Notes under the pieces: model-generated | Seen by the model: only the letters and a program-made list of their open reading frames with translations | The model's database searches: none | What the model was told of the DNA's origin: nothing | Shown here: piece by piece, positions 6,263-63,410 of the stretch | How positions within the stretch are numbered: the first letter of the stretch is position 1 | How the letters are laid out: each line of letters opens with the position of its first letter | Program-made: the position numbers and the translations under genes | Virus record (IMG/VR): IMGVR_UViG_3300036851_000550 | Coordinates: 7,076-71,075 of that record | Length of the DNA: 64,000 nucleotides | Direction: 5' to 3' (one strand) | Origin: a virus

Positions 6263-7452
6263 GCCGGCACCTGCTCGTCTTCGACGGCCGGCGGCTGCAG
6301 CTGCGCCTTGCGGGCCCCGAAAATCTGCCGAAGCTCCGGCGTCCAGGCCTCGGCGTCCACCGCGCGGGCGTACGCCGCGTCGAGCTGGTCCACCGTGGTC
6401 GCGTAGCGCGCGGTGAGCGCGTAGTCCTCGAAGGACTGCACCGGACGGATGCCGCGCTTGCCGAACTTGTTCCGCCAGTCGTAGACGACGCTGGTGTGCT
6501 TGACCGCCTTGCCGTAGTGCTGCAGGTCCACCCAGTACAGCCGGGCACGGCCCTGTCCGGACGGCACGTGCATGATCACGGCCCAGTCGGTGCGGGGCGG
6601 CGCGTGCGCGATCCCGTAGCGGCTCGCCCAGAGCGCCTTCGCCTCGTCGTCGGCGTCCTCGGCCGGCGCCCAGCCGTAGCGCTCCAGCGTGATCGGGTCG
6701 TACGGCGTGCCGTTGGCGTAGGCCCAGCACTGCTCGCCGAACTTGCAGCCGGCGAAGTCCATGTTCTGCGACGTCTTGACGTCGCCCATGATCACCCAGC
6801 CGGGCTCGATCACGAACCCGGTGTAGGTCTCCAGCGGGCGCAGCACCTCCAGGCACCGGTCGTACCTGCCGCCGATCTTGAACTTGTCCTCGACCACGAT
6901 CCGCTCGGACGACACCGTCCGGAAGCACTCAGACGCGATCTTGTACGCGGCGACGTCGGGGAGGAAGTCCTCCGGCACGTGTCCGGGATCCCGACCAAGA
7001 TCCTCATGCTCCAGGATGTCGTGCAGCGCGGTACCGATCGCCGCAGCGTCGGAGGAGCCCACGATGTCCATGGCCTTCTGGGCCAGCTCGTTCAGCGCCG
7101 CCTTCGCGTCCTTCACGACCTCCGGGTTGGGGTCGTCCAGCCGGTGCTCGGCGCGGGTCACCTCCAGCTGCAGCGCCTTGTTGCGCGAGGCGCCCCGCAG
7201 GACCTGCCGCAGCTTCCACGCGATCAGCAGGTAGTCCGACTCCAGCGGAGCGCCGAAGTTCGACGCGCGCTTGTAGCCGCCGCTGCGGTTCGAGTCCGGG
7301 AACTGGACCTTCGGCCGACCCCACTGGTCGCGGTTGCCCTCCCAGGCCTTCTCCATCTGCCACGCGTAGAGCCGCACCGGGTCGTCGGTGTCCGGCTTCG
7401 GGAAGTCTCGCTCGATCTCGCTGGCTCCGGTGATCTCTTCGGTCGACGTCAT
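6259..7452 (-). CDS. PD-(D/E)XK (Cas4/RecB-like) exonuclease
   Basis: GTALHDILE, GGRYDR, MGDVKTS, Q..AYANG. Confidence 0.8.
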   Translation of the reverse strand: MTSTEEITGASEIERDFPKPDTDDPVRLYAWQMEKAWEGNRDQWGRPKVQFPDSNRSGGYKRASNFGAPLESDYLLIAWKLRQVLRGASRNKALQLEVTRAEHRLDDPNPEVVKDAKAALNELAQKAMDIVGSSDAAAIGTALHDILEHEDLGRDPGHVPEDFLPDVAAYKIASECFRTVSSERIVVEDKFKIGGRYDRCLEVLRPLETYTGFVIEPGWVIMGDVKTSQNMDFAGCKFGEQCWAYANGTPYDPITLERYGWAPAEDADDEAKALWASRYGIAHAPPRTDWAVIMHVPSGQGRARLYWVDLQHYGKAVKHTSVVYDWRNKFGKRGIRPVQSFEDYALTARYATTVDQLDAAYARAVDAEAWTPELRQIFGARKAQLQPPAVEDEQVPA

Positions 7453-21990: not shown

Positions 21991-22479
21991 GTGGTGCCCT
22001 ACCCGGACAGGGAGGACGACGGCCAGGACAAGAACAAGTCGGAGGAAGAGCTCGACGCGGAAGCCCTGACGATCCTTCACAAGATCAAGCGTGGGGAGAG
22101 TCGTCGGGACGTGGCGCTCACTCTCGGTATATCCCAGGCGACCCTGGTTCGGCGCCTCCAGAGGGCGATCTTGAACCCAGTCCCGAAGTCAGTTCAGCGG
22201 GAGATCGAGGCCGAGCGGCTCGATGATCTAACTCTCCGTGTTCATGAGGCTCTGGAAGCCGGAGTCGCCACGACCGCGGACCTGGCTCTCCTTCTTCGGG
22301 AGGCTCGGGCTCTCTCGGCCGCACGAACCAAGCTCCGGGGACTCGCCGAGGTCACATCCTCGAACGACCCGGACGAGGACGACCTGAACGGTCTTCCCGC
22401 CGGCCTGAAGGCAGCAGCCGAGGAGGCCGAGCGGCGCATCGCCGAGGAGGGGAGGCGGCTCCGTGGTGAGGCTTCGTGA
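21991..22479 (+). CDS. Terminase small subunit-like HTH protein (second copy)
   Basis: N-term HTH SRRDVALTLGISQATLVRRL, E.ERLD.L and RTKLRGL patterns of actinophage TerS; directly upstream of TerL-like gene; AGGAGG SD. Confidence 0.65.
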   Translation: MVPYPDREDDGQDKNKSEEELDAEALTILHKIKRGESRRDVALTLGISQATLVRRLQRAILNPVPKSVQREIEAERLDDLTLRVHEALEAGVATTADLALLLREARALSAARTKLRGLAEVTSSNDPDEDDLNGLPAGLKAAAEEAERRIAEEGRRLRGEAS

Positions 22480-22519
22480 GCTGTGGGACACCGCGCGGGC
22501 GGTGAGTAGGAGGGACGAC

Positions 22520-24067
22520 GTGGCTGCACCGGCTGGCGAGTACGTGCCGTCGATCTACGCCCCGGAGACCTTCGGCCTGGACGATTACCTGGCCCGGCTG
22601 AACAATCCGCTGCTCGATCATGCGCACTACCGGCGCCTCTACTGCCAGTACGACCCGCTGCTCTTCGCGCTGATCTACCTCGAGCGGCACCTGATCAGCG
22701 ACGAGACCGGTGGCAAGGACATCCACCTGTCCCAGCTCCACCTCGACATGGCCGAGCACGCGAAGGCGATGGTCCGCAACGACTGCGGCCCGGCCGAGGA
22801 GCGCCATGTTTTCGTCGCCGCGCGCGACTCCGGCAAGTCGACGTGGGCCTGCCAGCCGATCATCGTGCTCTGGGCGATGGCCTTCAGGCACAAGGAAGTG
22901 ATCGCCTGCTTCACCGCGAACGACACCGCCGCGGGGAAGCTGATGGACTGCGTGCGCACCGAGCTGTCGGAGAACCAGCGCCTGCGCCACGACTTCCCGG
23001 AGCTCTGCCGGCCGGCGAAGAACAGCGCGAACCGCACCCGGGCCGACACCCAGAACATGTACATCGCGGCGTCCGGCGTGACGCTGATGGCCTACGGGAT
23101 CGACTCGAACCAGCTCGGTACGAAGATCGAGAACAAGCGGCCGAAGCTCATCATCTTCGAGGACGTGGAGCCCGACGAGGGCAACTACTCGGACGGGCAG
23201 AAGGCCGCGCGGCTCTCCACGATCCGGCAGGCGATCCTCCCGATGAACGATCGAGCGGTCGTCTGGTGGGTCGGCACGACAACGATGTTCGGCTCGGCCG
23301 TGCACGATCTCGTGCGCACGGCGCTCGGGGATCCGGTCGAGTGGGTGGTCGAGGACGACTGGCAGATCCACTACTACCCGCCGATCGTGATGCTCCCGGA
23401 CGGCACCGAGGAGAGCTGCTGGCCGGCGAAGTGGCCGATCAGCTACCTGCAGAAGATCCGCCACCGGCGCACGTTCGCGCTGAACTTCGAGAACAACCCG
23501 CGCTCGGTGGAGAACGGGCTGTGGACCCCGACCGACATCGTGGTCGTGCCGGACGCCCCGATGGGGGATCAGGTGCTGGCCATCGACCCCGGGGTCACCA
23601 GCCGGCAGACCTCCGACCCGACCGGCATGGCCGTCATCACCTGGGGCGCCCGCCTGGTGGTCGAGTACGCCGAGGAGCTGCGGCTGCAGCCCGACCAGCT
23701 GAAGGACATCACGCTGCGGCTGCTGCACGAGAACCCGCGGCTGAAAACGATCCTGATCGAGACGAACAACGGCGGCGAGGCCTGGTCCGACATCATCTGG
23801 GCCGCGCTCCCGCCCGGTGTCGAGCTGATCGACGTGTGGCACTCCAAGAACAAGAACGGCCGGTTCGAGCGGCTGCTCGACTTCTACCAGGAGCGCAAGG
23901 TCGTGCACGCCGCGGTGCACACAACGCTCGTCCGGCAGATGCTGATGTACCCCAAGGTGAAGAACGACGACGTGATCGACAGCGTCGCGATCGGCGTCGA
24001 GCACCAGCTCGAACACCTCTGGGGGAAGCGGTCCCGGCGCACGATCCAGCGTCGGCGGACGAAGTGA
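22520..24067 (+). CDS. terL: Terminase large subunit, second unrelated copy with no adjacent portal
   Basis: DPLLFALIYL, Walker A AARDSGKST, RPKLIIFEDVE, WVGTT; RNase H-like nuclease motifs LAIDPG..SD, LIETNNGG, NDDVIDSV. Confidence 0.82.
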   Translation: MAAPAGEYVPSIYAPETFGLDDYLARLNNPLLDHAHYRRLYCQYDPLLFALIYLERHLISDETGGKDIHLSQLHLDMAEHAKAMVRNDCGPAEERHVFVAARDSGKSTWACQPIIVLWAMAFRHKEVIACFTANDTAAGKLMDCVRTELSENQRLRHDFPELCRPAKNSANRTRADTQNMYIAASGVTLMAYGIDSNQLGTKIENKRPKLIIFEDVEPDEGNYSDGQKAARLSTIRQAILPMNDRAVVWWVGTTTMFGSAVHDLVRTALGDPVEWVVEDDWQIHYYPPIVMLPDGTEESCWPAKWPISYLQKIRHRRTFALNFENNPRSVENGLWTPTDIVVVPDAPMGDQVLAIDPGVTSRQTSDPTGMAVITWGARLVVEYAEELRLQPDQLKDITLRLLHENPRLKTILIETNNGGEAWSDIIWAALPPGVELIDVWHSKNKNGRFERLLDFYQERKVVHAAVHTTLVRQMLMYPKVKNDDVIDSVAIGVEHQLEHLWGKRSRRTIQRRRTK

Positions 24068-33748: not shown

Positions 33749-33913
33749 CTAGCGGGTGATGGGTGTGCCACCGGGGGCCGACGTCGGGCGACGGCGACAG
33801 GTCGTGGTGTGCGCCTCGCGCCGCCGCTCGGTGGTGTGCTCGAACAACGACGTCGTACGCCACAGGCAGCCCGGATACGGGCAGTGCGCGGTGACGATCG
33901 TCGGCTTGGCCAT
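33749..33913 (-). CDS. Small Cys/His protein
   Basis: CPYPGC..H..C; TGATG overlap. Confidence 0.4.
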   Translation of the reverse strand: MAKPTIVTAHCPYPGCLWRTTSLFEHTTERRREAHTTTCRRRPTSAPGGTPITR

Positions 33914-34794
33914 CAGCCGTGGATGACGATCCGGTACTCGCCCGCGGTGGTCGCGACGGCGAACCGCACGGTGACGTTGTTGACGTCGGTCGCCTCCCAG
34001 TCGGTGATGACCGCGTCGAAGGAACCGGTCGTCCGGACCACCGCGACCGTCACGTCCCGGGTGTTGAGGTTGTGGTTGCACACGGTCGATGTCGCCGCCG
34101 CGGTGTTGAACGCGGCCTTCCGCACGACCACCGAGGGGTTGATCGCCACGTCGTCGGCGTTCACCGTGATGCCGGTGCCGGCCCCGACCACCAGCGCGCC
34201 GGTGGAGAACGTCAGGCCGGCGCCCGCGTCCACTGACACGTCGTCGGCGGCTACGTTGATCCCGTTGCCTTCGCCGACGTTGAACGTGTTCGCGGGCGAA
34301 TCGGTCAGGCCGCCGCCCGCGGTGTAGACCGCACCGCCGCCCGCCCCGAACTGGACCCAGACCTGCGGCGTCGTGCCCACCGTGGTGACGGTGGCGGTCT
34401 GGGTGTACGCGGTGTCGGCGTTGACCGTGCCCTCGCGGATGAACACGGTGGCGTTGTGCAGCTCGGCGGTCGTATCCGCGTCGGTCGCGCGGGTGGGCGC
34501 GCCGGAGACGTTGACGGTGTAGATGCCGTTCTCTTGCCCAGCCGACTGGTTCTTGATCAGGATCCGGTCGCCGGTGACCAGCGCGACACCGTCGATCGTG
34601 TCGCCGTTCTCGAAGGCGGAGGCCAGCGTGCCGTTCGCGGTGGTGGCGGCCCGGACCGCTGTCTTCCACGTCAGCCCCGCGAGGAGCGCGTCCACGTACT
34701 GCTTGTTCGCAGCGTCGGTGGCGACCGACGGGTCGGCCAGCGCCTGGATGCGCTGATTCGCGAGGTTGAGCCCGTTCAGGACCGTGGTGGCCAT
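33913..34794 (-). CDS. Virion fibre/decoration-like protein
   Basis: LADP..TDAANKQYVD, VRAATTAN, GDRILIKNQ..ENGIY, AGxGL repeats, HNLNTRDVTV. Confidence 0.7.
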   Translation of the reverse strand: MATTVLNGLNLANQRIQALADPSVATDAANKQYVDALLAGLTWKTAVRAATTANGTLASAFENGDTIDGVALVTGDRILIKNQSAGQENGIYTVNVSGAPTRATDADTTAELHNATVFIREGTVNADTAYTQTATVTTVGTTPQVWVQFGAGGGAVYTAGGGLTDSPANTFNVGEGNGINVAADDVSVDAGAGLTFSTGALVVGAGTGITVNADDVAINPSVVVRKAAFNTAAATSTVCNHNLNTRDVTVAVVRTTGSFDAVITDWEATDVNNVTVRFAVATTAGEYRIVIHG

Positions 34795-34807
34795 GCTCTA
34801 TCCCTTC

Positions 34808-35125
34808 TCAGACGAGACGTGCAGACCCGGTCTGCGGACTGGCGAAAGTGATCGTGATGGTGTTCAGCGACCCGTAGTCGACGTCGGCGATGACCTGCTC
34901 GTCGGCGACCCGAATCGAGACGGCGGGGTAGAGGCCGAGGTTGTGCGTGATGATCCAGTTCGACGACGGGTCGGTCTGGGTGTGGACGAACCCCGCGCCC
35001 GCGGCGCCCGGCGGTCCCTGCGGCCCGGCGACCGGCAGCACCAGCACATCCGGCGGGACGTTGCCGGGCACGTTGGTGATCTGGACCGGTGCCGGGTCGA
35101 CCTTGACCTCAAGGGGAGACGTCAT
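34808..35125 (-). CDS. Small structural protein with short collagen-like stretch
   Basis: GPQGPPGAAG; W.ITHNLG.YP.V. Confidence 0.65.
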   Translation of the reverse strand: MTSPLEVKVDPAPVQITNVPGNVPPDVLVLPVAGPQGPPGAAGAGFVHTQTDPSSNWIITHNLGLYPAVSIRVADEQVIADVDYGSLNTITITFASPQTGSARLV

Positions 35126-35438
35126 GGATCAACCCCTGCGCTAGCAGCAGCTCCGGCGCGCCGACACCGCCCACGTAGTAGAGCCGGCTGGCCACCGGCA
35201 AGAGCCCGAGCAGCGCGGCCACGACGGCCTTGTCCTCGTGGAACGTGGCCGTGTCGGTGACCACGGCTGCGGTCCAGGTCGCGAGCACCGCATCGGCCGC
35301 GCTGAGGAACTTCAGCTGCATGGTCGTGCTGGCCGGGAAGTTGCTCCCGTCCGCCGTCCGCACGACCTGGAAGAAGTCGGCGTCGCTGGAGAGCGTGAAG
35401 CTCGACCGGACCGGGAGGACCCCGAAGTTGATCGTCAC
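35109..35438 (-). CDS. Minor structural protein (BppU/LtfC-like size and position)
   Basis: Beta-rich 109 aa after holin; GTGA overlap. Confidence 0.5.
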   Translation of the reverse strand: MTINFGVLPVRSSFTLSSDADFFQVVRTADGSNFPASTTMQLKFLSAADAVLATWTAAVVTDTATFHEDKAVVAALLGLLPVASRLYYVGGVGAPELLLAQGLIHDVSP

Positions 35439-35815
35439 CCGAGCTCCACCCGGGAGTGCCGGCCGGTGGCCACCAGCTCGACCCGCGCCCACACCTGGGT
35501 GCGCACGAACATGCCGGCCACCAGGGCGACGAATCCCATCACGGTGGCCTGCTCCTCCGGAGTCAGCTGCAGCCCCCAGGCGATGCCGAGCGCGAGCAGG
35601 GCCTGCACGAGGCCGAGCACGAACGGCAGCATCTTGTCCGCCGCGACCCCCCAGGCCGTGATGATCCCAGCGATCGCTGCGGCCACGGCGTTCACCGCGC
35701 CCTGCATGTCCGGCGTCAGATCCATGAACACGACGGTGCCGGCCTGCGCCAGCAGGGACACGAAGGCAGTGAGCAACGCGGGCTCACGCCCGAGCCGAGA
35801 CAGGTTGATCGTCAT
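35435..35815 (-). CDS. Holin
   Basis: GREPAL..., four TM segments, EQA.VM..FVRTQV; next to endolysin. Confidence 0.75.
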   Translation of the reverse strand: MTINLSRLGREPALLTAFVSLLAQAGTVVFMDLTPDMQGAVNAVAAAIAGIITAWGVAADKMLPFVLGLVQALLALGIAWGLQLTPEEQATVMGFVALVAGMFVRTQVWARVELVATGRHSRVELG

Positions 35816-36045
35816 CGCGGCACCTTCTCCTTGATCCGGTAGATGTGGATCGTCAGCCAGAACCAGGCCGACAGGAACGCCGCCATGCCCAGGTGGGCGT
35901 GCCGGGCACGTGGATGCACGCCGAGCCAGCGCGCCAGACAGCGCGACAGCGTCTCGTGCTTGCAGTAGCGGAAGGCCGCGAGCTCGAGCACGGAGAAGCT
36001 GACCGCCGTGGAGACGACCCACGCCGGCCAGGCCCACCGCCACAC
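35812..36045 (-). CDS. Small membrane protein in lysis cassette
   Basis: W..F..LE..A..TLS..W..WL..H pattern; two TM. Confidence 0.55.
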   Translation of the reverse strand: MWRWAWPAWVVSTAVSFSVLELAAFRYCKHETLSRCLARWLGVHPRARHAHLGMAAFLSAWFWLTIHIYRIKEKVPR

Positions 36046-36047
36046 GA

Positions 36048-36914
36048 TCAGGCCTTCGGCTGGACGATCAGGGAGACCCCGATCGTCGTCTTCGGGTCCA
36101 GTCGGCGACCCTCGACCGTGAAGCTCCGGACGCCCGCGGGGAGCTTCCAGAAGTCCTTCTTCGGGTCGGCCTCGCCGATCGGCTTCAGCGCGTCCCAGGC
36201 CACCACCCGCATAGTCGCGGTGCCCCAGTGGAACGCCCACCGGACCCATGCGTGCGCGACGACCGCGGAGTTGTCGCCGGCCTCGGCCGGGCAGCTGGCC
36301 CGGAAGTTCAGCCCGGCCGGGTCCGGGGCCCAGTCGTCGTTGTAGAACTTCAGGTCGATCGTCTGCACGGGGTCTCCCAGTTGCGGCGGGGTGACGGGCG
36401 GTGCCCCTTCCCAGGGCAGGTTCATGTCGGCGATGCGCTCGTAGGCGTGGATGCCGGGGCACGCGGTCTGCTTCACGTCCCGGTGTCCGCCGTTGAGCTG
36501 CGGGACGCGCCACCAGCCGGCAATCTGCCCGCGCCAGAGCAGCCACCGGATCGCGTCGACCTGGTGGTTGGTCGGCGACAGCACCTCGTAGTTGCCGATC
36601 AAGCAGATGGCCCGCGACGTGCTGTTCCGCCCGCCGGTGTGCGTGCCGCGCTTCGTGACCGAGTGGCCCTGGAAGATCCGCCCGCTACGGGGGATGACGA
36701 ACGTGTAGGAGATGCCGGCGCCGAACCGAGCCTGGCCGATCTGCTCCATGAGCTTCACGGCGTTGCGGTCCTGCTCGAAGCTCGCGCTCTCCGGCGGCGC
36801 CTGCGTGACGCTGTGGTGCAACCAGACCTCCTTGGCCGGCTGCGTCGTGGTGTGGCCGTCCCCGTCCGGGTGCTCGGCGCCCCACTCCTTGCGCGTGATG
36901 ATCGGGCCGGGCAT
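36048..36914 (-). CDS. Endolysin, N-acetylmuramoyl-L-alanine amidase (Amidase_2/PGRP)
   Basis: IITRKEWGA, WLHHS, GISYTF, GTHTGGRN, GHRDVKQTACPG. Confidence 0.9.
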   Translation of the reverse strand: MPGPIITRKEWGAEHPDGDGHTTTQPAKEVWLHHSVTQAPPESASFEQDRNAVKLMEQIGQARFGAGISYTFVIPRSGRIFQGHSVTKRGTHTGGRNSTSRAICLIGNYEVLSPTNHQVDAIRWLLWRGQIAGWWRVPQLNGGHRDVKQTACPGIHAYERIADMNLPWEGAPPVTPPQLGDPVQTIDLKFYNDDWAPDPAGLNFRASCPAEAGDNSAVVAHAWVRWAFHWGTATMRVVAWDALKPIGEADPKKDFWKLPAGVRSFTVEGRRLDPKTTIGVSLIVQPKA

Positions 36915-37117
36915 CAGTCGGCCGCTTCAACCCGGTGGTGCCGCCCGGAGTCGGAGATGCCGGCGATCGCCGTCGAGTCCCACGGCTCCGAGCACGGGGT
37001 CTCGGCCGGCGGGCCGAACAGGTGGTCGGCGGTCTCGTTGAAGATCAGGAGGTCGGCGTCGTCCTCGCGCTCTTCGTCGCTGAACCAGCCGAACGGGTCG
37101 TCGTACCGCCAGGTCAT
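36914..37117 (-). CDS. Small acidic hypothetical protein
   Basis: AAGGAGTCA SD; TGATG overlap. Confidence 0.5.
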   Translation of the reverse strand: MTWRYDDPFGWFSDEEREDDADLLIFNETADHLFGPPAETPCSEPWDSTAIAGISDSGRHHRVEAAD

Positions 37118-37126
37118 GCTGACTCC

Positions 37127-37744
37127 TTAGCTAAGGCGTGCGCGGACCACCCAGTTGTCGTCGTAGTGGCCGGCGCGCGTGGTCCCGAAAGCGCCACCAC
37201 AGGTGATCAACCGCAGCTCCGGCGTCTCTGTCGGGGCGTAGATCTCGTCGGTCGGGAACGCGGCCTTCGCGTACCGGTCGACGCGGTAGACCAGGAAGCG
37301 AGCGCGCGAACCGTCCAGGCGCTCGATGAGCACCTCGTCGCCGACGTGCAGCTCGGAGAGCCGGTGGAAGATCCCGGGACGGCCCTTCACGCCGTCGATC
37401 GGTCCGTCGACGTGGCCGACCACCACCGCGGGGATGCCGAGCTCGCCGGGGAGCGGGTCGTCCGCAACGCTCTTCGGGTCCCGGCCGCCGTACCAGGCGG
37501 CCTGCAGGGTGTGCAGGTCGCTGACGTCGATCTCGTCGTCGGCGTTCAGCACGACCGGGATGAGCGAGGACTCGGCGCCGAGCGTGGGGAGCGTCAGCCA
37601 GTTCGGCGGCGACTGCGACGGCACCGGGGTGGTGATGGCCGGCGGCTGCTCGACCGGCTGCAGCACGCTGGAGGCCGGGACCCCCGGAGCGCTGCACCCG
37701 ACCAGCAGGCACAGCGCTCCGAGGATGAGCCAGAACGGCCTCAC
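37127..37744 (-). CDS. Class F sortase, lipoprotein-anchored
   Basis: LLVGC lipobox; PGELGIPAVVVGHVDG, GIFHRLSELHVGDEV, FPTDEIYA, ELRLITCGGAF..HYDDN. Confidence 0.88.
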   Translation of the reverse strand: MRPFWLILGALCLLVGCSAPGVPASSVLQPVEQPPAITTPVPSQSPPNWLTLPTLGAESSLIPVVLNADDEIDVSDLHTLQAAWYGGRDPKSVADDPLPGELGIPAVVVGHVDGPIDGVKGRPGIFHRLSELHVGDEVLIERLDGSRARFLVYRVDRYAKAAFPTDEIYAPTETPELRLITCGGAFGTTRAGHYDDNWVVRARLS

Positions 37745-37745
37745 G

Positions 37746-38402
37746 TCAGGCCGGGCCGCCACCGGTGTCGACGCCACCGGAGGGCACGTCGACGTCAACA
37801 TCCACATCGATGTCGTTGTCGTCGTCCACGCCGTCGTTGTCGTCGGGGTCCTCGACATCGACCCCGTCGCCCTCACAGGCCACGCCGTTGTTGTTGGCGT
37901 CGAGCTTGTGCGGGTCGTTGGCGTCCTGGTTGAGCACGGTCTGCGCCGAGGTGCCGTCCGGACGCGGGAAGTCACCGCAGTCCAGGTCGACGAAGTCGAT
38001 CACGGGGGGAGCGGGCTCGGTCGTCGGCGCGGGCGTGGTGGTGGGCGCGGGGTCGTCCGCGGCGCACGCCTCGGTCTGGTCAGCCACAGAGGCCTCGAGA
38101 AGTGTCTGCTTGTCCGCGAGCTTGCGGTCGGCCTTCTCGATCTCGTCCCGCTTGTCCTCGATGGCCTGGAACGGCTTCGGCTCCGTGTTCTCCAGGACCA
38201 CCAGCTGTGCGTTCAGCAGGTCGACCTTGTCCTGCGCCTCGTCGCGGGCCTTCGTCGCCTTCGTGGCGGCCTTACCGGCCTCCGTGCACGCGGAGGTGCC
38301 TGGACCGGTGTCTCCCTCCTGCGCCAGCGCGGCAGGCGCTGCCAGGGCCAGGCCGATCCCCAGCGCCAGAACGGCGCCGGCTACAGCGAACTTCCTCTTC
38401 AT
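37746..38402 (-). CDS. Secreted protein with Excalibur-like Ca-binding domain and PSGGVDTGGG C-terminus (putative sortase F substrate)
   Basis: Signal peptide, coiled coil, PT linker, DLDCGDF..AQ..DPHKLDANNNGVACE, terminal VPSGGVDTGGGPA. Confidence 0.75.
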   Translation of the reverse strand: MKRKFAVAGAVLALGIGLALAAPAALAQEGDTGPGTSACTEAGKAATKATKARDEAQDKVDLLNAQLVVLENTEPKPFQAIEDKRDEIEKADRKLADKQTLLEASVADQTEACAADDPAPTTTPAPTTEPAPPVIDFVDLDCGDFPRPDGTSAQTVLNQDANDPHKLDANNNGVACEGDGVDVEDPDDNDGVDDDNDIDVDVDVDVPSGGVDTGGGPA

Positions 38403-38424
38403 GGGTCTCCCTTTCGGGTTTCCG

Positions 38425-38448
38425 CCCGGGAGCCAGGTGGCTCCCGGG
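38425..38448. terminator. Stem-loop upstream of sortase-substrate gene
   Basis: CCCGGGAGCCA-gg-TGGCTCCCGGG. Confidence 0.4.
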
Positions 38449-38452
38449 ATGT

Positions 38453-38728
38453 CTATGGCCGAGTTGGCCGGTACGCGCGGTGCGGGCCGGAGCCGACCAC
38501 CGCCTCGATGCCCGCCAGGCGTTCTCCGTGCCTGGTCTGGACCGTGCGCAGCTCGCGGACCTCGGTCTCGATCCGATTCACGGCGTCCGCCATGGACGAG
38601 CCGCCGTTCGCGGTGACCGCGCTGACCACGCTGTCCTGCTTCTTCCGGGCCCGGACCATCTCGACGAGCACGCCCGACATCACCAGGCCGACCGCGGTCA
38701 CCACGGCCACCATCACCGGCTCGGTCAC
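38453..38728 (-). CDS. Single-TM lysis-region membrane protein
   Basis: N-terminal TM, NGGSSMADAVNRIE, coiled coil. Confidence 0.6.
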   Translation of the reverse strand: MTEPVMVAVVTAVGLVMSGVLVEMVRARKKQDSVVSAVTANGGSSMADAVNRIETEVRELRTVQTRHGERLAGIEAVVGSGPHRAYRPTRP

Positions 38729-38730
38729 GG

Positions 38731-39294
38731 CTAACGACCCGCGAGGCTGGGCGGGCCGGGGAGTCCCGGCTTCACCAGGCCTTCGAGCGTCACTCCATCA
38801 CGGAAGATCATCAGCTCTACCCCCTGGTCGGTGAACAGAACGGGCTGCAGCTCGGTCTGGAACTCGGACTCATCGCCCTCGGGGCGCGGGTTCTCGTCGT
38901 CGGCGTCCGGCACGTAGGCCACCCAGATGACGACCACCGCCCACCCGACGATCGGCTCCTCCCAGTCGTCTCCGTGCTCGTTGGACAGCCGCGCGAGCCA
39001 GCCGCTCGAGTCCGGGGCGAAGTGCAGGACAGATCCGACAGTGGGCCTCACGTCATCGACTCCTTGGTTGAGGTCTGGTGCGACGGCCGGCAGCTCGAGG
39101 ACGACCGGGCCAGCCCCGAACTGCTGGACCTGGGCCATGAGCTGCTCGGCGATCGCCTGGCCGAAGTCGACCGCCGCGGAGCCTCGCGTCCTGGGGGGCA
39201 GGAAGCCCAGGCCCATCTGCGGTGCGCGGATGGTTCTGGGCATGCGGGAGCTCCGCGGCGGCCGAGGGTTCGGTATCCGCGGTGGGTGGGGCAT
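38731..39294 (-). CDS. Hypothetical protein
   Basis: Fills gap between tail and lysis genes; PIVGWAVV. Confidence 0.5.
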   Translation of the reverse strand: MPHPPRIPNPRPPRSSRMPRTIRAPQMGLGFLPPRTRGSAAVDFGQAIAEQLMAQVQQFGAGPVVLELPAVAPDLNQGVDDVRPTVGSVLHFAPDSSGWLARLSNEHGDDWEEPIVGWAVVVIWVAYVPDADDENPRPEGDESEFQTELQPVLFTDQGVELMIFRDGVTLEGLVKPGLPGPPSLAGR

Positions 39295-39297
39295 CGG

Positions 39298-40251
39298 CTA
39301 CTTGGTGTAGGTGACCCGGATGTAGGGCCGCCGGTCCAGGTTGTCGACCCCGGCGAACTTCGTCTGCGCGTTCAGGATCGGCGAGCAGACGTGCATCGCG
39401 TTGTCGCCGCCGATGATGTCGTCCAGGAAGTCGCCGAGGATGTCGACCTCGTGGAACTGACCGGTCGGGAAGTCGTCGTCGAATCCGTACTCGATGCTGC
39501 CGGCGCCCAGCGTCCCGGGCGGAGTGGTGGCGGTGGATCCCTCGAAGCCCAGCGAGCCGTTGGTCTCCTGGGTGGAGTCGCACCACATGCCGAGCACCGC
39601 GGACTGGATGGTGGCTCCGGTCATCTCCGTCCGGATGTCCGCGCCGTCGAAGATGACGATCGACCGCGTGTTGCCCTTGCCGTCGCCCCAGTTGCCCCGC
39701 CAGGCCAGCTCGTCGTCGGCGAACGGGTTGCTGGATCCGTCGTAGGACTGCGAGTCCGTAGCGCGCCAGGTGGTGGTCCGCTGGAAGGTGCCGGACGGGT
39801 TGCCGGTGCCGCCGCTGTTCATGGCCGCACCGAGCGCGCCGACGTCCATCGCGTAGAGGTTCCAGCCGCCGCTGTTCACGAACGTCAGGTTGGTGCCGCT
39901 GGGGACCTCACGGGACTGCAGCGCGAAGGTCACGGTCGCGGTGTCGAACGGGTCCTCGCTGAGCGCGAACAGCACGCCGGGGGAGATCATCCCGTAGTTG
40001 TCGATGGTGAGCCGGCCAGCGCCGAGGTCGGTGGGGCCGTTGCCGAGCGAGTCGGTGACCACCCACTTGTACTCGAGGTCGTTCGCCAGGCCGCTGGCGT
40101 TGTCGCAGCGCAGCGGGGTGGTGCTGATGAAGTAGAGCCGGCCGCCCTCTGCGGGGAACCGGAACCACCCGGTGCCGGTGAAGGTGTTGTCGCCCGGTGC
40201 GGGCGGGGTGCCGAAGGTGCCGTGGAAGCCGACGAGGTCTCCGGATGCCAT
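39298..40251 (-). CDS. Minor tail protein
   Basis: Beta-rich Gly/Thr/Asp composition; C-terminal RPYIRVTY; end of tail operon. Confidence 0.65.
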   Translation of the reverse strand: MASGDLVGFHGTFGTPPAPGDNTFTGTGWFRFPAEGGRLYFISTTPLRCDNASGLANDLEYKWVVTDSLGNGPTDLGAGRLTIDNYGMISPGVLFALSEDPFDTATVTFALQSREVPSGTNLTFVNSGGWNLYAMDVGALGAAMNSGGTGNPSGTFQRTTTWRATDSQSYDGSSNPFADDELAWRGNWGDGKGNTRSIVIFDGADIRTEMTGATIQSAVLGMWCDSTQETNGSLGFEGSTATTPPGTLGAGSIEYGFDDDFPTGQFHEVDILGDFLDDIIGGDNAMHVCSPILNAQTKFAGVDNLDRRPYIRVTYTK

Positions 40252-47302: not shown

Positions 47303-50300
47303 TCAGCGGGTCCACTGCGGTGTGCGGCTGCGACTGGTCCGGATCGTCCGGGCCGCCTTGCCCTGCGCACTGCCGATCTTCACGATCCGGCCGGTGTTCG
47401 CCGAGCGGACGAACCCGCGGCGGAAGTCGCTCTTGCGCAGCCCGGCATGGGTGCGAACCGTGCGGATGTTCGTCGGCTTCCGCTGCGTGGTCATCCGGCG
47501 GCCACGCTGCACGCTGGGGACAAGCTTCTGCTTGGACCGGTTGAGCGTCCGCGTGGCCTTCCGACCCGGCTTCATGTTCGACCGGACCGGCCGACCGAAC
47601 TGGCTGCGGCCGATCACGTTCCGAGACATCGTGTTCGGGATGCCTCCGGTCCGCTTCGCCGCCGGCTTCTTCGGCGGGGGACGACGCGGCGTCGGCTTCC
47701 GGATCGGGGTGTTGCGGGTCGGCGGCCGAGCGGGGCTGCGGCGCGCGGTGTTGACCACCCCGGTCCGTGTCGCCGTGCGCATCGGCGCTCGGCCTGCCAC
47801 CCTGGAGGTCCGGCCGCCCGCCGCTGGCCGCCGGGCAGCCGGCCGACCCCCAGCCGGTGTGCGGCGGGTGACCGGCTTGGCCCCGGGCTTCCGGACCTTC
47901 GAAGTGGCCTTCGGCAGGTTCCGGCTGCGCGTGATCGGCTTCGAGCCCGGCTTCTTCCCGGCGGTCCGGGCGCGACCGCCCGTGGCGCGGGTGGCGGGAC
48001 GGCGGGAGGTGGCCTGGGCCGGTCGGCGCACGCCGCCACCGCGGGAGGCCTTCGGCGCGCCCTGGCCACGCGGGCGCATCCTCGAGCCGGCGCGGGCCCC
48101 CTTCGGCATCTTGCGACCGCCGCCTCCGGGAGCGGCGGTGCGACGGCCCCCGGTCGGGCGGGGTGGCGGGGCCCCGCCCGACCTCTGGGGCGCACGCCGA
48201 GCTCCACCGCGGGCGGGACCGGTCCGGGTGGGGCGAGCGTTGCGCGACAGGGTGCGGGGCCGGGCCCCGACCTTCACTGGCGTCTTGCGACCGCCGCTGG
48301 CCCCGGTTCGCCCGGTCTTCCGGACTCCGGAGCGGCCGGCGCCCGGACGGCCCTGGGGAGCGCGACGCTGGCCCGGTCGGGCGGCTGGCCTACGACCTGC
48401 TCCCTGCGCGGGGCGACGTGTCCCAGTCGGACCGCGCCGCGCTCCGCGATCAAGCGTACGAGGGCCTGCACCACGCCGCGGCGTCTGCTTGCCCGTCCGA
48501 CGGACCGGAGCGCGAGAGGGCGTCCTACGGCCGCCTGAGCGGACCGCTGCGGGCTTACGGGCGGGAGTCCGGGGTGTCCGTACCCCCATGACGCGCCCGG
48601 GAGGCTGCCCACCGCCGCCTCCGCCACTGCGGTCGCTGCGCTGGGCGCGACGGGCACGCGGGGGTGTAGTCCGACGTGGACGGGGGGCGGTGCTCCGGCC
48701 GCGTCCTCGAGCTCGACCCGGACCGGAGGTGCGCGTGGTCCGGCGAGTCGTGGTCCGACCTCGGGTGCCCGGGGCGGTGGTCCGACGCGGGCGCGCCGTG
48801 GGGCGGGACGAGGTGGACCGTCGCGCGCCGCCGGTCTGGCGCGCTGTGGGTCGACGGGTGCCGGACGGGCGAGCGGTGGGTGTCCGGCGAGCACCGGAGG
48901 GCCGAGTGGCACGGCGGGTGGCCGGTCGCGAGGTCCCCCGACGGGTGGTCGGACGTGCGGTTCCTCGCCGCGCGGTGCCCGGGCGTGTCCCCCGCTGTGT
49001 CCCGGGTCGTGTCCCGGTTGGGCGTCGGGTACCGCCGCGTGCCGGCCGGCGAGCTCCGGGCCGCGTGGAAGTGCCCCGACGGGCCCCCGGCCGAGCCGCG
49101 GTGCCCCGGCGGGTGGTCGGCCCGGAGGTACGTCCCGGACGAGCGCCTGGTCGCGTGGTGGGCCGTCGCGCGCCCGATCCCCGACGAGGAGCCGTGGTGG
49201 GCCGGCGCCGAGCACCGCCGGCACGCCCGGGACGGCGCGCGCCGCCGGTGGTCGTGGTGGGTCGACGGGATCCGGTTCCCCGGCGGGTCGTGGGACGCCG
49301 CGACGGGCGGCCAGCGGGCCGACGAGCGCCCGGACGGCGGGTGGTGGGGGTTCCGGGACGCCTGGGGCGCCCGGCGCCCGTCCTGCGCGGTGTGGGACGC
49401 ATCGGGCGAGCACCGGTGCGACGTCCCGGACGGGCAGTAGTGGGCCGGCGGGCGCCGCGACGAACCCGGGTGGGCTGGGTCGGGCGAGCGCCGGTCCGAC
49501 GGCCCGGGGCCCCGCGCCGTGGGGTGGGTCGAGCACCTCGGCGGGTGCGGGTCGGCTGACCGGTGCCCCGGCGGGCCGGCGGCCTGGTCGTGGGGCGACG
49601 GCGCTGCGCAGTGCGAGGCGGACGAGGCCGCGGGGTGGTCCGAACACCACGACGGGATCGGGTCTGCGGCCGGGTGCCCTGCGCGGTGCGAGGCCGGGGC
49701 GTCGGACGTACGGCACGCCGCCGCGTCGGGCGGGCCGGCGGCCGACGAGTGCCGACGCGCTGACGGTCGCGCTGTGGACGGGCAGTCCGTCGACGAGTCG
49801 GCTGCCCGGTGCGGCGCTGGGTGCGTGTGCGCGTCTGGGTGCGCGTACGTGCCTGGGTGCGCTGGCGGGTCGGACCGGTGGTCGCCCGCTTCGTCGGAGA
49901 TCCGGTCTTCTTCCCGGTGCGGACCGGAGCCCGAGTGCCCGTGATGGTCTTGGTTGGGCGGCGAGCCGGCGTGCGCACTCGCGATGGACGCGCTGCGCGA
50001 GCGGGCGCCGCCTGGTCTATCCCCCGAGCTCGTGGTCGAGCGGCTCGGGTGATTGCGTTGGGATTGACCACCCGAGCCGCCCGGGGCGCTCCGGACGAGA
50101 TGCGAGGTCGTCCGAAGAGGCCGCCGCTGGACACCGTGGTCGGGGCCATCCCCCGGGGTGCAGCTCGCCGGATGGGCGCGATCATGGCCGCCGGACCTGC
50201 ACCCCGGAACAGCCTGCCGCGCAGGATGGAACCTAGCCCGACAGCGGCCAGGATGCGCAGGAACAACCCGTTCAGCGCGCTGGGCGCGACCGACCGGATC

Positions 50301-50824
50301 CGGATCGGTGGCGTGGGCGCGGTGCCAGCGCCCTGTCGGCCGTGCGGACCGCGCAACGCGTCGGCGATCGGGTCCCGCAGCTTCCGGTACGCCTTCGGCC
50401 GAACCAGGACCGCGGACGTGGTCATGAAGCGGGCGCCGCGCTGGTGGAACCGGCGGCCGAGGCGGTCCGGGCCGCGGAAGCCGTACTCGATGCGCTTCCC
50501 GTACACGATGTCGGTGCCGATGACGGCCGTGTACTCGGAGTCCGGGCTGTTGAAGCCCATCACCCCCTGGATGGGGATGGCCTGCCGCACGGACACCCCG
50601 GAGCCACCGGTGCCGCCGAACGACATCGAGTAGGGGCCCTCGATCTGCGCGACGATCGATGCCGCGAGCGCACCGGAGCGCTTCGGCGCCTTCTTCTGGA
50701 TCTCCTGCTGGATGGCCCGCGCCGCGGCCTCGATGCCGATGTAGGACGCGCCGTCGACCTTGAACTCGACCTCGTGGGTCGCGTCGACGAACTCATCCAC
50801 ATCGACGTCGACGAAGCGGGCCAT
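47303..50824 (-). CDS. HK97 gp10-like tail protein fused to an ~1000-aa Arg/Thr/Pro/Gly-rich polycationic extension
   Basis: N-term APKRSGALAASI...IGTDIVYGKRIEYG...ARFM gp10 motifs; GGAGG SD; after ~aa 155 no Glu and only about five Asp. Confidence 0.8.
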   Translation of the reverse strand: MARFVDVDVDEFVDATHEVEFKVDGASYIGIEAAARAIQQEIQKKAPKRSGALAASIVAQIEGPYSMSFGGTGGSGVSVRQAIPIQGVMGFNSPDSEYTAVIGTDIVYGKRIEYGFRGPDRLGRRFHQRGARFMTTSAVLVRPKAYRKLRDPIADALRGPHGRQGAGTAPTPPIRIRSVAPSALNGLFLRILAAVGLGSILRGRLFRGAGPAAMIAPIRRAAPRGMAPTTVSSGGLFGRPRISSGAPRAARVVNPNAITRAARPRARGIDQAAPARAARPSRVRTPARRPTKTITGTRAPVRTGKKTGSPTKRATTGPTRQRTQARTRTQTRTRTQRRTGQPTRRRTARPQRDRQRVGTRRPPARPTRRRAVRPTPRPRTAQGTRPQTRSRRGVRTTPRPRPPRTAQRRRPTTRPPARRGTGQPTRTRRGARPTPRRGAPGRRTGARPTQPTRVRRGARRPTTARPGRRTGARPMRPTPRRTGAGRPRRPGTPTTRRPGARRPAGRPSRRPTTRRGTGSRRPTTTTGGARRPGRAGGARRRPTTAPRRGSGARRPTTRPGARPGRTSGPTTRRGTAARPGARRGTSTRPGARRPARGGTRRPTGTRPGTQRGTRPGTARRGTARPTTRRGTSRPATRRATRPSGARRTPTARPSGTRRPTARQTGGARRSTSSRPTARPRRTTAPGTRGRTTTRRTTRTSGPGRARGRGRSTAPRPRRTTPPRARRAQRSDRSGGGGGGQPPGRVMGVRTPRTPARKPAAVRSGGRRTPSRAPVRRTGKQTPRRGAGPRTLDRGARRGPTGTRRPAQGAGRRPAARPGQRRAPQGRPGAGRSGVRKTGRTGASGGRKTPVKVGARPRTLSRNARPTRTGPARGGARRAPQRSGGAPPPRPTGGRRTAAPGGGGRKMPKGARAGSRMRPRGQGAPKASRGGGVRRPAQATSRRPATRATGGRARTAGKKPGSKPITRSRNLPKATSKVRKPGAKPVTRRTPAGGRPAARRPAAGGRTSRVAGRAPMRTATRTGVVNTARRSPARPPTRNTPIRKPTPRRPPPKKPAAKRTGGIPNTMSRNVIGRSQFGRPVRSNMKPGRKATRTLNRSKQKLVPSVQRGRRMTTQRKPTNIRTVRTHAGLRKSDFRRGFVRSANTGRIVKIGSAQGKAARTIRTSRSRTPQWTR

Positions 50825-61817: not shown

Positions 61818-63410
61818 TCACCACAGGTTCGGCGCGCCCATCAGGAGCGCGCCGTGCTCGATGGCCCACCCACGGGCCTCCAGGGCGAGCAGCCCCGCCT
61901 GGAAGGCGCTGATGGGCGCCCTGCCCTTACGGACCACACGGCGGTAGTTCTCCGGCTGACCGGGCAGCCGCTCCTCCGCCGAGCTCCGCTTCCGGCCGTT
62001 GGCCAGCGCCGCGGCGAGCGCATGCGCGGTAAGCGTCTCGTCGCCGTCGTGGGTGAACTCGTCTTCGCCGTAGTGCGCGGTCTCGAAGCGCTCGACGATC
62101 TGGTCCATCCGCATCTCGCTGTTGAGCCAGATCTCGAGGACGCGCTTCGGGTACTCCCCGGCCCAGACGTTGACCTCGGTCTGCCAGGTGTGCGGGGAGC
62201 ACATCATCGTGGCGACGTCGTAGGTCTCGAAGGCCAGCTTCACCGTGGCGTGCACCTCGGGCCGCGGGATCTGCCAGTCCGCGTCGCCGAGGTGCGCGGG
62301 CCGCTCCCACGTCCGGATGTGGAAGAGCCGACCGTCCCGCAGCCGGCACGCGACCAGCGACGTCGCCTCCCGGGTCTGGCTGCCGAGGAAGCCCAGGCCG
62401 ATCTGCTCGAACTTGTCGAGCGTCTCGCCCGGCCGGGCCTGGTTCGCCCAGAGCAGCGGGTCCACCGCGGCCTTGCTGCCGACCGTGATCTCGTTCAGGA
62501 AGAAGCGCCGCGCCTCGTTCTCGCCGGTCGAGGCGTCCTTGGCCTCTTCCAGGATCCGGTCGATGTTGACCCAGCCGCCCGCTTCGGCCGCCGAGTCGCC
62601 GTAGACGTAGACGAGCTCGGCGCGCAGCGCGGCCTCGTCGTCCATGTCGATGTGCGCCCGCGGCGGGCGGTAGTCGATGTAGACGCCGGGGGCCTTCGCC
62701 TCGAACGTCCGCTGCGCCGTGGACTGCTCCGCGGGGTCCCAAGCGTTCGTCAGCTCCATCCACCGGCCGTCCATGCCGGCCAGGCCGCGCTTCATGGTCT
62801 TGGCCAGGGACACGCCGCCGCTGGCGTCGGTGTACAGCCCGGACTCCGTGAAGGTGGCGTAGGTGATCCGGGCGCCGAGGCGGGAGCGGGCCTGCGCGGT
62901 CACGGGCTCGATCCGGCCGCCGCCGGGCAGGTTGACGCGGGACAGCCCCACGTCGAGCCCGGGGAGATCGGCGAGGGGCCCCTCGGTGAGCATCGCGAAG
63001 ATCGGGTCGTAGGTGTTCGCGACCTGGTCCTCTGCGTTCGCCGCACACTGGATCCACGGCGTCGGCATCGGCATCCCGACCGGCTCCCCGTCGGCGTCCC
63101 AGCCGGCGAAGCGCACCGGGCCGAGCGCCTGCGCGCAGCACTGCGCCGCGCCGAGCGGGTCCTTCCCCGACTTCTGCGCGCGGACCAGGAGCGAGCCGTA
63201 GTAGCTGAAGGCCTGGCTGCCCATGTCCGGGCGGGCCGTCGGTCGGAGCCGATACGTCCAGATCAGGTGCTTCCACTGTTCGTCGGTCAACTTCCACGAC
63301 AGACCACGTGCCGCGCGATCCGGGACGATCAGGTTGGCTTCCATCCAGTCCCCGACGAGATAACCGAGGGTGGGGAACTCTCCCTTGTACTCGGGGCCCC
63401 GCCAGGGCAC
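61818..63410 (-). CDS. terL: Terminase large subunit (head module); nuclease domain apparently inactivated
   Basis: PTLG..V.DW.E, LTDEQ, Walker A RAQKSGKDP, PWIQCAA..EDQ, TNAWDP, EARRFFLN; position between terS and portal; nuclease Asp positions read GFLGS, CSP, PISA. Confidence 0.88.
   Translation of the reverse strand: MPWRGPEYKGEFPTLGYLVGDWMEANLIVPDRAARGLSWKLTDEQWKHLIWTYRLRPTARPDMGSQAFSYYGSLLVRAQKSGKDPLGAAQCCAQALGPVRFAGWDADGEPVGMPMPTPWIQCAANAEDQVANTYDPIFAMLTEGPLADLPGLDVGLSRVNLPGGGRIEPVTAQARSRLGARITYATFTESGLYTDASGGVSLAKTMKRGLAGMDGRWMELTNAWDPAEQSTAQRTFEAKAPGVYIDYRPPRAHIDMDDEAALRAELVYVYGDSAAEAGGWVNIDRILEEAKDASTGENEARRFFLNEITVGSKAAVDPLLWANQARPGETLDKFEQIGLGFLGSQTREATSLVACRLRDGRLFHIRTWERPAHLGDADWQIPRPEVHATVKLAFETYDVATMMCSPHTWQTEVNVWAGEYPKRVLEIWLNSEMRMDQIVERFETAHYGEDEFTHDGDETLTAHALAAALANGRKRSSAEERLPGQPENYRRVVRKGRAPISAFQAGLLALEARGWAIEHGALLMGAPNLW

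Follow-up and report, generated by a model that had tools for sequence, protein, structure and literature searches.

What would a phage gain from a sortase, and how could such an enzyme act on a neighbouring protein that ends in a sorting-like motif followed by neither a membrane helix nor a basic tail? The question is raised by two adjacent genes in a 64,000-nucleotide (nt) stretch of DNA (hereafter, the window) that is part of a 71-kb virus record with about 69% G+C, from a soil phage of a high-GC actinobacterium, IMG/VR record IMGVR_UViG_3300036851_000550 (positions 7,076 to 71,075). An earlier note, made from the letters of the window, had described the pair as a phage-borne system in which a class F sortase is accompanied by a non-canonical soluble substrate. 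The sequence observations were confirmed, and the interpretation was supported in part: the enzyme is predicted to be a class F-type lipoprotein sortase, and the secreted protein encoded upstream is its likely dedicated, helix-less substrate. However, the anchor-less state is not peculiar to the phage, being also the commoner state among the chromosomal pairs that we sampled (see below).

The comparative sequence data indicate that the module is real and conserved, and that the sortase gene is coupled to a secreted-protein gene. With a probability of about 0.6, we read the pair as a module made up of a sortase and its dedicated substrate, part of the late operon of a probably virulent, tailed actinophage, through which an acidic helical protein would be covalently fixed to the envelope of the infected cell. 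The pair comprises the following features.

37127..37744, minus strand: sortase gene, 205 amino acids (aa), GTG start at 37744; from Pfam, NCBIfam, AlphaFold2 and invariant residues
37694..37744, minus strand: predicted lipoprotein signal peptide of the sortase, residues 1-17, lipobox L-V-G-C at 14-17; read by eye
37746..38402, minus strand: gene of the likely substrate, 218 aa; from the open reading frame (ORF) and its translation, with relatives that share architecture and terminus
38322..38402, minus strand: predicted signal peptide of the substrate, residues 1-27, Sec-type, A-L-A before Q; read by eye, position conserved in the alignment of relatives
38067..38321, minus strand: helical, fast-diverging N-terminal domain of the substrate, residues 28-112, Cys-flanked; from identity to the relative P0002 and structural look-alikes
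37869..38066, minus strand: Pro/Thr linker and Excalibur-like domain of the substrate, residues 113-178; PF05901 match below threshold
37749..37787, minus strand: predicted C-terminal sorting tag of the substrate, VPSGGVDTGGGPA, residues 206-218; from the sequence, conserved in relatives

The sortase and its secreted neighbour

The Pfam family Sortase (PF04203, peptidase family C60) matches residues 90-204 of the window enzyme with 57.8 bits against a cut-off of 26.6, and the only NCBIfam match is to the class F sortase model NF033748, at a score to which we return below; the class E model NF033747 gives about 25-28 bits on relatives of the enzyme. In total, 419 proteins match the window sortase at E up to 1e-10, and the named relatives, at 40-50% identity, are annotated as 'class F sortase' of Amycolatopsis, Actinokineospora, Pseudonocardia and others. 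Across 46 aligned relatives, His111 (GHVD), Cys182 (ITCGG), Tyr194 and Asn197 (both in YDDN) are invariant. The His, Cys (in LITCGG) and Asn that the earlier note had singled out, along with a lipobox, are therefore where it placed them, and Asn197, the class F Asn, is a genuinely conserved position.

Structural comparisons point the same way. The His and the T-C motif of the window sortase align with those of solved sortases in a profile search of Protein Data Bank (PDB) sequences, in which the matches were weak, and a phmmer search with the window sequence against PDB sequences found none at E up to 0.01. An AlphaFold2 model built from 46 sequences (predicted local distance difference test 86.8; predicted template modelling score 0.76) predicts an eight-stranded beta-barrel sortase fold, and every one of the best PDB matches listed for it is a sortase of class C, E or A (Foldseek probability 1.0; template modelling scores of 0.46-0.54, normalised by query length), with Thermobifida sortase E and class C sortases among them. 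In the BFVD viral structure library the model has no match at E up to 0.001. The N-terminus, read by eye, has Arg2, a hydrophobic core and the lipobox L-V-G-C, as expected of a lipoprotein, and in our own reading of the sequences about 32 of 41 viral sortases carry a lipobox-like x-x-[GA]-C at the equivalent position. These properties identify the predicted enzyme as a class F-type sortase lipoprotein.

The stop codon of the upstream gene and the GTG of the sortase at 37744 are separated by a single base (C, 37745), and the upstream protein ends, as first described, in VPSGGVDTGGGPA directly before its TGA stop (37748-37746). A Shine-Dalgarno-like AAGGGAG lies 6 nt ahead of the substrate ATG. 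The encoded protein consists of the signal peptide, the helical part, the Pro/Thr linker, the Excalibur-like stretch, an Asp-rich DVDVDV run and the tag, in this order. V-D-T-G lies 5 residues from the C-terminus and is followed only by G-G-G-P-A; the hydrophobic membrane segment and the positively charged tail are both absent.

The helical part gives only weak Pfam coiled-coil matches, and its structural look-alikes in a protein atlas are generic helical hairpins with template modelling scores below 0.5. The Excalibur family (PF05901) matches the window protein at 16.4 bits, below the cut-off of 22, and the loop reads D-x-N-x-N-G-x-x-C-E against D-x-D-x-D-G-x-x-C-E in the family. The domain is matched in five of seven aligned relatives (E up to 0.05; best E 2.2e-5), and the stretch is probably homologous to Excalibur. 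Compared with the nearest relative, P0002, the helical domain (residues 28-112) is 39% identical and residues 113-178 are 97% identical; this split, seen in one pair of proteins, would be compatible with a domain exchange or with diversifying pressure on a part exposed at the surface.

Relatives of the substrate found by sequence have a like architecture and the terminus VPSGGV[DA]TGGGP[AE]-stop, and in one of them, P0008, the chain runs on past a similar motif into a hydrophobic segment and then RRRRR. We searched 1.84 billion cluster representatives with a profile of the substrate family and obtained 3,618 matches at E up to 1e-3; among the best 150 of these, 44 have a helix-less tag, 14 a tag plus helix, 3 another ending and 89 no tag, and the Excalibur-like loop is present in 82 of the 89 tag-less members. 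Read by eye from the listed termini, the looser consensus of the tag is [V/I]-P-x-G-[G/A]-x-[E/D/Q/A]-T-G-[G/D]-G. Many diverged relatives retain the motif as their extreme C-terminus, which places it far beyond chance. Neither PHROGs nor PADLOC has a family for the sortase or the substrate. A complex prediction for the sortase domain and the last 84 residues of the substrate scored 0.22, against a mark of 0.32, a result that weighs neither for nor against the pairing. We regard the upstream secreted protein as the likely dedicated substrate of the sortase.

The tag in viruses and chromosomes

We scanned IMG/VR with the sortase alignment and classed the end of each upstream gene by script. A related sortase is present at 42 IMG/VR loci, some of them redundant (L074 equals L075, and L094-L096 are identical), and 41 have upstream DNA. 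In 29 of these 41, the upstream gene ends in a [V/I/T]P...T[G/D] tag with 1-9 further residues, so the search of phage databases that the earlier note had proposed did find the anchor-less pair; 5 of the others have a tag plus hydrophobic tail, 3 have other tails and 4 lack a tag by this pattern. The stop of the substrate gene overlaps the inferred sortase start by 4 nt in 20 of the 29 anchor-less loci, although sortase starts were picked by a simple rule on which gap and overlap lengths depend. A degenerate DNA pattern of the tag added one more viral contig. Among 50,697 GenBank phage records, we found no DNA match to positions 36000-39300 and, by tblastn at E up to 1e-3, no match to either protein.

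The same degenerate pattern matches nine loci in genomes. At seven of them the tag ends a plausible secreted protein (in Pseudonocardia, Amycolatopsis, Haloechinothrix, Thermocrispum and a metagenome-assembled genome of Actinomycetota), and a class F sortase lies within 2 kb at all seven; four of the proteins are helix-less and three have a helix plus basic tail. The other two are probable chance matches. In metagenomes, 23 loci contain 14 plausible tagged genes, of which 12 have a sortase beside them, and the two contigs without a sortase end right after the motif gene. Chance matches (9 of the 23 metagenome and 2 of the 9 genome loci) were dropped by eye as Arg-rich, non-coding-looking frames with no sortase nearby. 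The exact tag of the window behaves differently: in 201 Pseudonocardiaceae genomes its pattern is matched in 5, three of which hold already-known loci, versus 7 matches of a reversed control. The exact wording is thus rare, and the looser tag is common.

Relatives of the sortase are themselves widespread, being found in 55 of 61 sampled Pseudonocardiaceae genomes (53 of 59 without two unpublished ones), with up to 9 per genome. We classed the upstream ends of 30 chromosomal pairs from the 29 best-scoring loci, a sample biased toward the closest relatives from which the unpublished L122 was left out: 16 have a helix-less tag, 8 have a tag, helix and basic tail, and 6 are unclear. These pairs, together with the seven genome loci, bear out the statement of the earlier note that actinobacterial class F sortases have PxGGVxTG-like proteins as neighbours, and they show that an anchor-less substrate is not special to the phage. 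One such pair, L018 of Pseudonocardia adelaidensis, lies among housekeeping genes, and its substrate combines an acidic region with an Excalibur domain that is clearly recognised (50.1 bits). In Amycolatopsis suaedae (L019, 1400-3130), three tandem small secreted paralogues precede one class F sortase; two end in tag, helix and RRR, and one ends right after the tag. This locus offers a natural comparison of a tripartite with a helix-less signal within a single locus.

Because the same tag elsewhere precedes a membrane helix and an Arg cluster, it can be read as a true sorting signal, and the comparisons above suggest that its helix-less form is a general trait of this sortase branch, not a phage oddity. 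We further placed 37 viral and 35 bacterial catalytic domains, 72 in all, on a quick maximum-likelihood tree of modest resolution, having removed L122, duplicates and any row that was truncated or had an uncertain start. The viral label requires at least 8 changes on this tree, only 2 of which are forced by well-supported branches, and it is clustered, since none of 500 shuffles was as low. The window sortase falls in a group of 12 rows (11 viral and L018) with an SH-aLRT (Shimodaira-Hasegawa-like approximate likelihood ratio test) value of 92. On our reading, the module has long been resident in phages, with several exchanges with hosts.

We also considered that the window substrate had simply lost a helix tail through a frameshift or an assembly error, or that the pair was a recent, silent host capture; the A. 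suaedae locus, with one anchor-less paralogue next to two helix-tailed ones, could be read as decay. However, the same type of terminus occurs in dozens of independent relatives, and a 67,589-base contig from another assembler, probably of the source sample, has no differences from the window over 36900-38500. The frame downstream of the substrate encodes the signal peptide of the sortase itself, in frames that differ across loci, and the G+C content at third codon positions (GC3) is 0.89 in both genes, like that of the neighbouring genes. As for capture, the window sortase belongs to a mostly viral clade, and the pair recurs in dozens of viral contigs. The missing helix is therefore genuine, and no transmembrane segment follows the tag, as the earlier note had said; the artefact reading is already contradicted, and we give it practically no weight. 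A programmed frameshift or read-through that would join the substrate to the signal helix of the sortase was also considered, and was rejected because the frame offset differs between loci. With a 1-nt gap in the window and a GTGA-type overlap of 4 nt in most other loci, the junction itself differs, so no conserved frameshift could join the two frames.

Genomic setting of the pair

The pair lies in a minus-strand late operon that runs from 63410 down to about 33900 and encodes terminase, portal, protease and major head protein; tape-measure and minor tail proteins; two small genes; and then the substrate, the sortase, a 67-aa ORF, an Amidase_2 endolysin, a holin and tail-fibre-like genes. The position in the lysis region is thus as originally described, between the tail genes and the endolysin and holin. 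The nearest neighbours are the following.

38453..38728, minus strand: 91-aa membrane protein directly upstream of the substrate, with an N-terminal helix and a charged helical tail; weak PHROG membrane-protein matches
36914..37117, minus strand: 67-aa acidic ORF between sortase and endolysin; GC3 0.94
36048..36914, minus strand: endolysin, N-acetylmuramoyl-L-alanine amidase; Pfam Amidase_2 at 51.4 bits, PHROG endolysin/amidase
35435..36043, minus strand: holin ORF; phrog_9752 at E 6.3e-17, match covering residues 84-191, so that the true start may be internal

The 67-aa ORF has no family match in PHROGs, Pfam and PADLOC scans of the window proteins. We detected no sequence similarity between the 91-aa membrane protein and the like-designed upstream proteins of two other phages, and the module as we define it does not include this protein. 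The pair shares its strand with the tail and lysis genes, with intergenic gaps of 9 to 50 nt, and no promoter-like or terminator-like sites were found around it, in what is a weak test for actinobacteria. Strand, tight spacing and the lack of such sites suggest that the pair is expressed late, together with the tail and lysis genes. A look-up of sequencing runs gave one DNA run, probably of the source sample, and listed none of RNA, which bears neither way on expression.

In two further phage genomes, G001 (50 kb, with terminal repeats) and G002 (52.8 kb, 100% complete by CheckV), the pair occurs in a matching local order: membrane proteins, substrate, sortase, small Cys-rich proteins, amidase and small membrane proteins. 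Since no tyrosine or serine recombinase domain of an integrase was found in the record that contains the window, G001 or G002, all three are probably virulent. Other carriers are prophage-like, such as the locus L071, from an isolate genome, which is the same as locus L023 of the cultured Pseudonocardia parietis DSM 45256. We ran Pfam on 146 flanking proteins of 34 viral loci (L075 and L095-L101 were left out). At 13 of the 34, a protein of a peptidoglycan hydrolase or holin family is encoded no more than 3 kb away, downstream on the same strand in 10 of these 13, and at 21 there is no recognisable lysis gene within 3 kb. Terminase or capsid genes adjoin the pair at some loci (L066, L086).

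Several other neighbours recur. Small Cys/His-rich ORFs with zinc-finger-like spacing lie directly downstream of the sortase in G001 (L051, 6058-6315), G002 (L052, 10128-10488) and a metagenome contig (L031, 1340-2041), and by eye these ORFs are conserved among these phages. In several of the 50-kb-type phages, a gene for a membrane protein with collagen triple-helix repeats lies a short way upstream of that for the substrate (L052, 12069-12812; L051, 3288-4328; L036, 66-1010). At L072, L074 and L079, on viral contigs of 34-122 kb, the pair adjoins a YdjM-type membrane protein and a DUF2786 protein on the opposite strand, not lysis genes; the tag variant at L072 and L074 is ..P-A-P-T-G-G-G plus 7 residues, and the tail at L079 was classed as 'other'. 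Proteins with an Rpf-like 'Transglycosylas' domain are encoded upstream of the pair at two viral loci, L067 and L071.

Three observations concern the window outside the pair. A 1173-aa ORF (47303-50824, minus strand), in a stretch of 80% G+C between the tail genes and the tape-measure gene, has a structured N-terminus of about 130 residues and then consists nearly entirely of Arg, Pro, Thr and Gly; an overprinted frame would be one explanation, and a basic protein of extremely low complexity another. The record also has two unrelated genes resembling the terminase large subunit (TerL), at 22463-24067 (plus strand) and 61818-63410 (minus strand). The plus-strand gene is 32% identical (E 1e-75) to a TerL-like gene beside the lysis genes of G001 and has no similarity to the one heading the structural operon. 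Finally, the region downstream of the holin (33913-35492, minus strand) encodes an LtfC-like beta-sandwich protein, a 105-aa protein and a 293-aa protein; the last matches head-decoration, collagen-like and tail-fibre families, so that fibre-like genes would follow the lysis cassette.

What the module might do

In the mechanism that we propose, the substrate would be exported by Sec, and the lipid-tethered sortase would then cut the tag, most likely between the T and G of V-D-T-G. We place the cleavage there because the core [G/A]-[V/A]-[E/D]-T-G resembles the class E signal LAxTG, as described in a study of Streptomyces coelicolor (PMC5148588). A short peptide would be freed, GGGPA in the window and 2-9 residues across the family, and the Thr carboxyl would be passed to an amine of the envelope, most likely that of lipid II or of a stem peptide in peptidoglycan. 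Anchored proteins that span the wall typically have a Pro/Thr stalk immediately ahead of the sorting signal, and here the stalk would cross the wall, so that the helical domain and the acidic, Ca-binding part would be presented at the surface of the infected cell. In the most speculative step, this late wall graft would lower the adsorption of phages, whether progeny or competitors, to infected cells and debris.

The role of the module in infection is one that we only infer, and of the possible roles we favour a wall graft that would alter how phages meet the infected cell or its debris. In its boldest form, the proposal is that a private, helix-independent sortase system grafts a fast-evolving helical shield onto the wall of a cell soon to be lysed, so that receptors are covalently masked, the burst is saved from debris and competitors are excluded; this form would also reveal a natural signal and the first physiological use of class F sortases. 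We hold it to be conceivable but doubtful.

Several points weigh against reading the pair as a late wall-anchoring module of a class F enzyme. The window sortase scores 127 bits with NF033748, below the curated cut-off of 166, as do its relatives in the phage clade (135-152 bits), while chromosomal relatives score 186-215; by this measure, the window enzyme would represent a divergent branch beside the class F family as NCBI delimits it. After Cys182, no Arg position is invariant in the 46 sequences, and Tyr194 and Asn197 are invariant instead. Because the canonical catalytic Arg after the Cys is not conserved, the chemistry may differ from that of canonical sortases. Activity, cleavage site and acceptor are predictions for every member of the clade, and a helix-less secreted substrate could diffuse away before capture. 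Because some carriers are prophages, an exclusively late, lytic use of the module may not hold generally, and the tail-to-lysis position is also a usual site of phage accessory genes, so that adjacency alone ties the module neither to lysis nor to adsorption. Lastly, the cellular role of class F is obscure, since Actinoplanes missouriensis was reported to show no phenotype when its four class F sortases were all deleted (PMC13251363).

The enzyme could instead join proteins to proteins. As a ligase or polymerase, it would link the tag Thr to a Lys or the N-terminus of another secreted or membrane protein, candidate partners being a membrane protein whose gene lies upstream or, as happens when pili are assembled, the substrate itself. 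This would suit a substrate with no membrane retention signal and the presence of class C sortases among the best structural matches, as well as the conservation within clades of four or five residues after the T (GGGPA, GDGS..), which exceeds what a leaving group needs. Membrane proteins with extracellular helical or collagen-like parts are also encoded directly upstream in several phages, but these are not conserved in sequence between phages, and the helix-tailed paralogues resemble ordinary wall-sorting signals; we consider ligation unlikely. Hydrolysis is another potential outcome. Sortases hydrolyse when a nucleophile is absent, and an enzyme lacking the conserved Arg might simply trim off the last residues, so that the secreted protein would be matured or released and nothing passed on to an acceptor. 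However, it is hard to see what the loss of 2 to 9 residues would serve, the classical pathway is implied by the helix-tailed paralogues, and a Pro/Thr stalk before the tag is what anchored proteins typically have, which makes trimming very unlikely in our view.

An accessory role in lysis would make different sense of the setting. Late loading of protein onto lipid II or stem peptides could weaken or re-time wall synthesis, or an acidic, Ca-binding graft could condition the wall for the endolysin. The pair is directly upstream of endolysin and holin genes in the window, a hydrolase or holin family is nearby in 13 of the 34 viral loci, and the Excalibur-like and poly-Asp part could bind Ca. 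Against this stand the 21 loci with no recognisable lysis gene within 3 kb, the terminase or capsid neighbours at L066 and L086, and the same kind of pair in chromosomes among housekeeping genes, e.g. at L018. We therefore regard a lysis accessory as quite unlikely, and continue to favour a wall graft.

The closest known systems are the chromosomal class F sortases of Pseudonocardiaceae, which belong to the same family (40-52% identity) and share the lipoprotein design. The secreted proteins encoded upstream of them end in P-x-G-[GA]-x-[EDQ]-T-G-[GD]-G, often helix-less, and that of L018 repeats the Excalibur plus acidic design of the window. In contrast, the phage-clade sortases carry two short insertions relative to chromosomal class F sortases and score 127-152 versus 186-215 bits with NF033748; the chromosomal substrates carry small Cys-containing beta-type domains, whereas those of phages have a helical N-terminal domain; and the phage pair is located in a late/lysis operon. 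Phage-encoded surface lipoproteins that block adsorption or injection, namely Llp of T5 and Ltp of Streptococcus phage TP-J34, are comparable in that a phage-encoded envelope protein could shield an infected cell or debris. These act non-covalently, on a known receptor or tape-measure protein, whereas the product of the window system would be covalent and made by an enzyme.

A sortase has recently been reported in other phages. A preprint (10.64898/2026.10.24.761521) describes huge gut phages that together have 24 genes for sortase B, accompanied by canonical substrates; a candidate substrate is likewise encoded immediately upstream and the display of phage proteins on the host wall is also proposed. 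Those modules are of class B, in phages above 200 kb with Bacillota hosts, and use a tripartite signal of PXTG, hydrophobic segment and basic tail. Modules of the window type, in contrast, have a class F-type lipoprotein and a helix-less tag, in phages of roughly 50-120 kb with high-GC actinobacterial hosts. The class E enzymes SrtE1 and SrtE2 of S. coelicolor, which act on chaplins, tolerate a small residue in place of Pro two positions before T, but they are housekeeping enzymes with many substrates and tripartite signals (PMC5148588). The only characterised class F enzyme is SrtF of Cutibacterium (Propionibacterium) acnes, the species in which the class was first studied, where it is reported to be a housekeeping sortase for LPXTG proteins; while of the same class, it is not paired with one neighbour, and the accessible parts of two reviews (PMC8225981, PMC11231552) report no helix-less tag for it and describe class F function outside this species as unclear and its structure as unsolved. 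In the literature that we searched, with subscription journals mostly outside coverage, neither this tag nor class F substrates without a helix nor a class F sortase encoded by a phage was found described.

Of the sortase classes, F is understood least, and the tag gives its enzymes a concrete candidate signal and natural substrates. In most cases this tag lacks the helix and basic tail that textbooks hold to be obligatory. If it is processed in vivo, membrane retention would not be a general requirement of sortase pathways, and the tag would be a natural minimal 'sortag'. Cultured carriers include the prophage-like locus of P. parietis DSM 45256 (L023/L071) and the chromosomal pair of P. adelaidensis (L018). 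For phages, the finding extends the recent report of sortase B in huge gut phages to actinophages of ordinary size, in which a sortase is usually coupled to a substrate and often beside lysis genes, and the late functions known so far would be joined by a covalent remodelling of the wall of the host.

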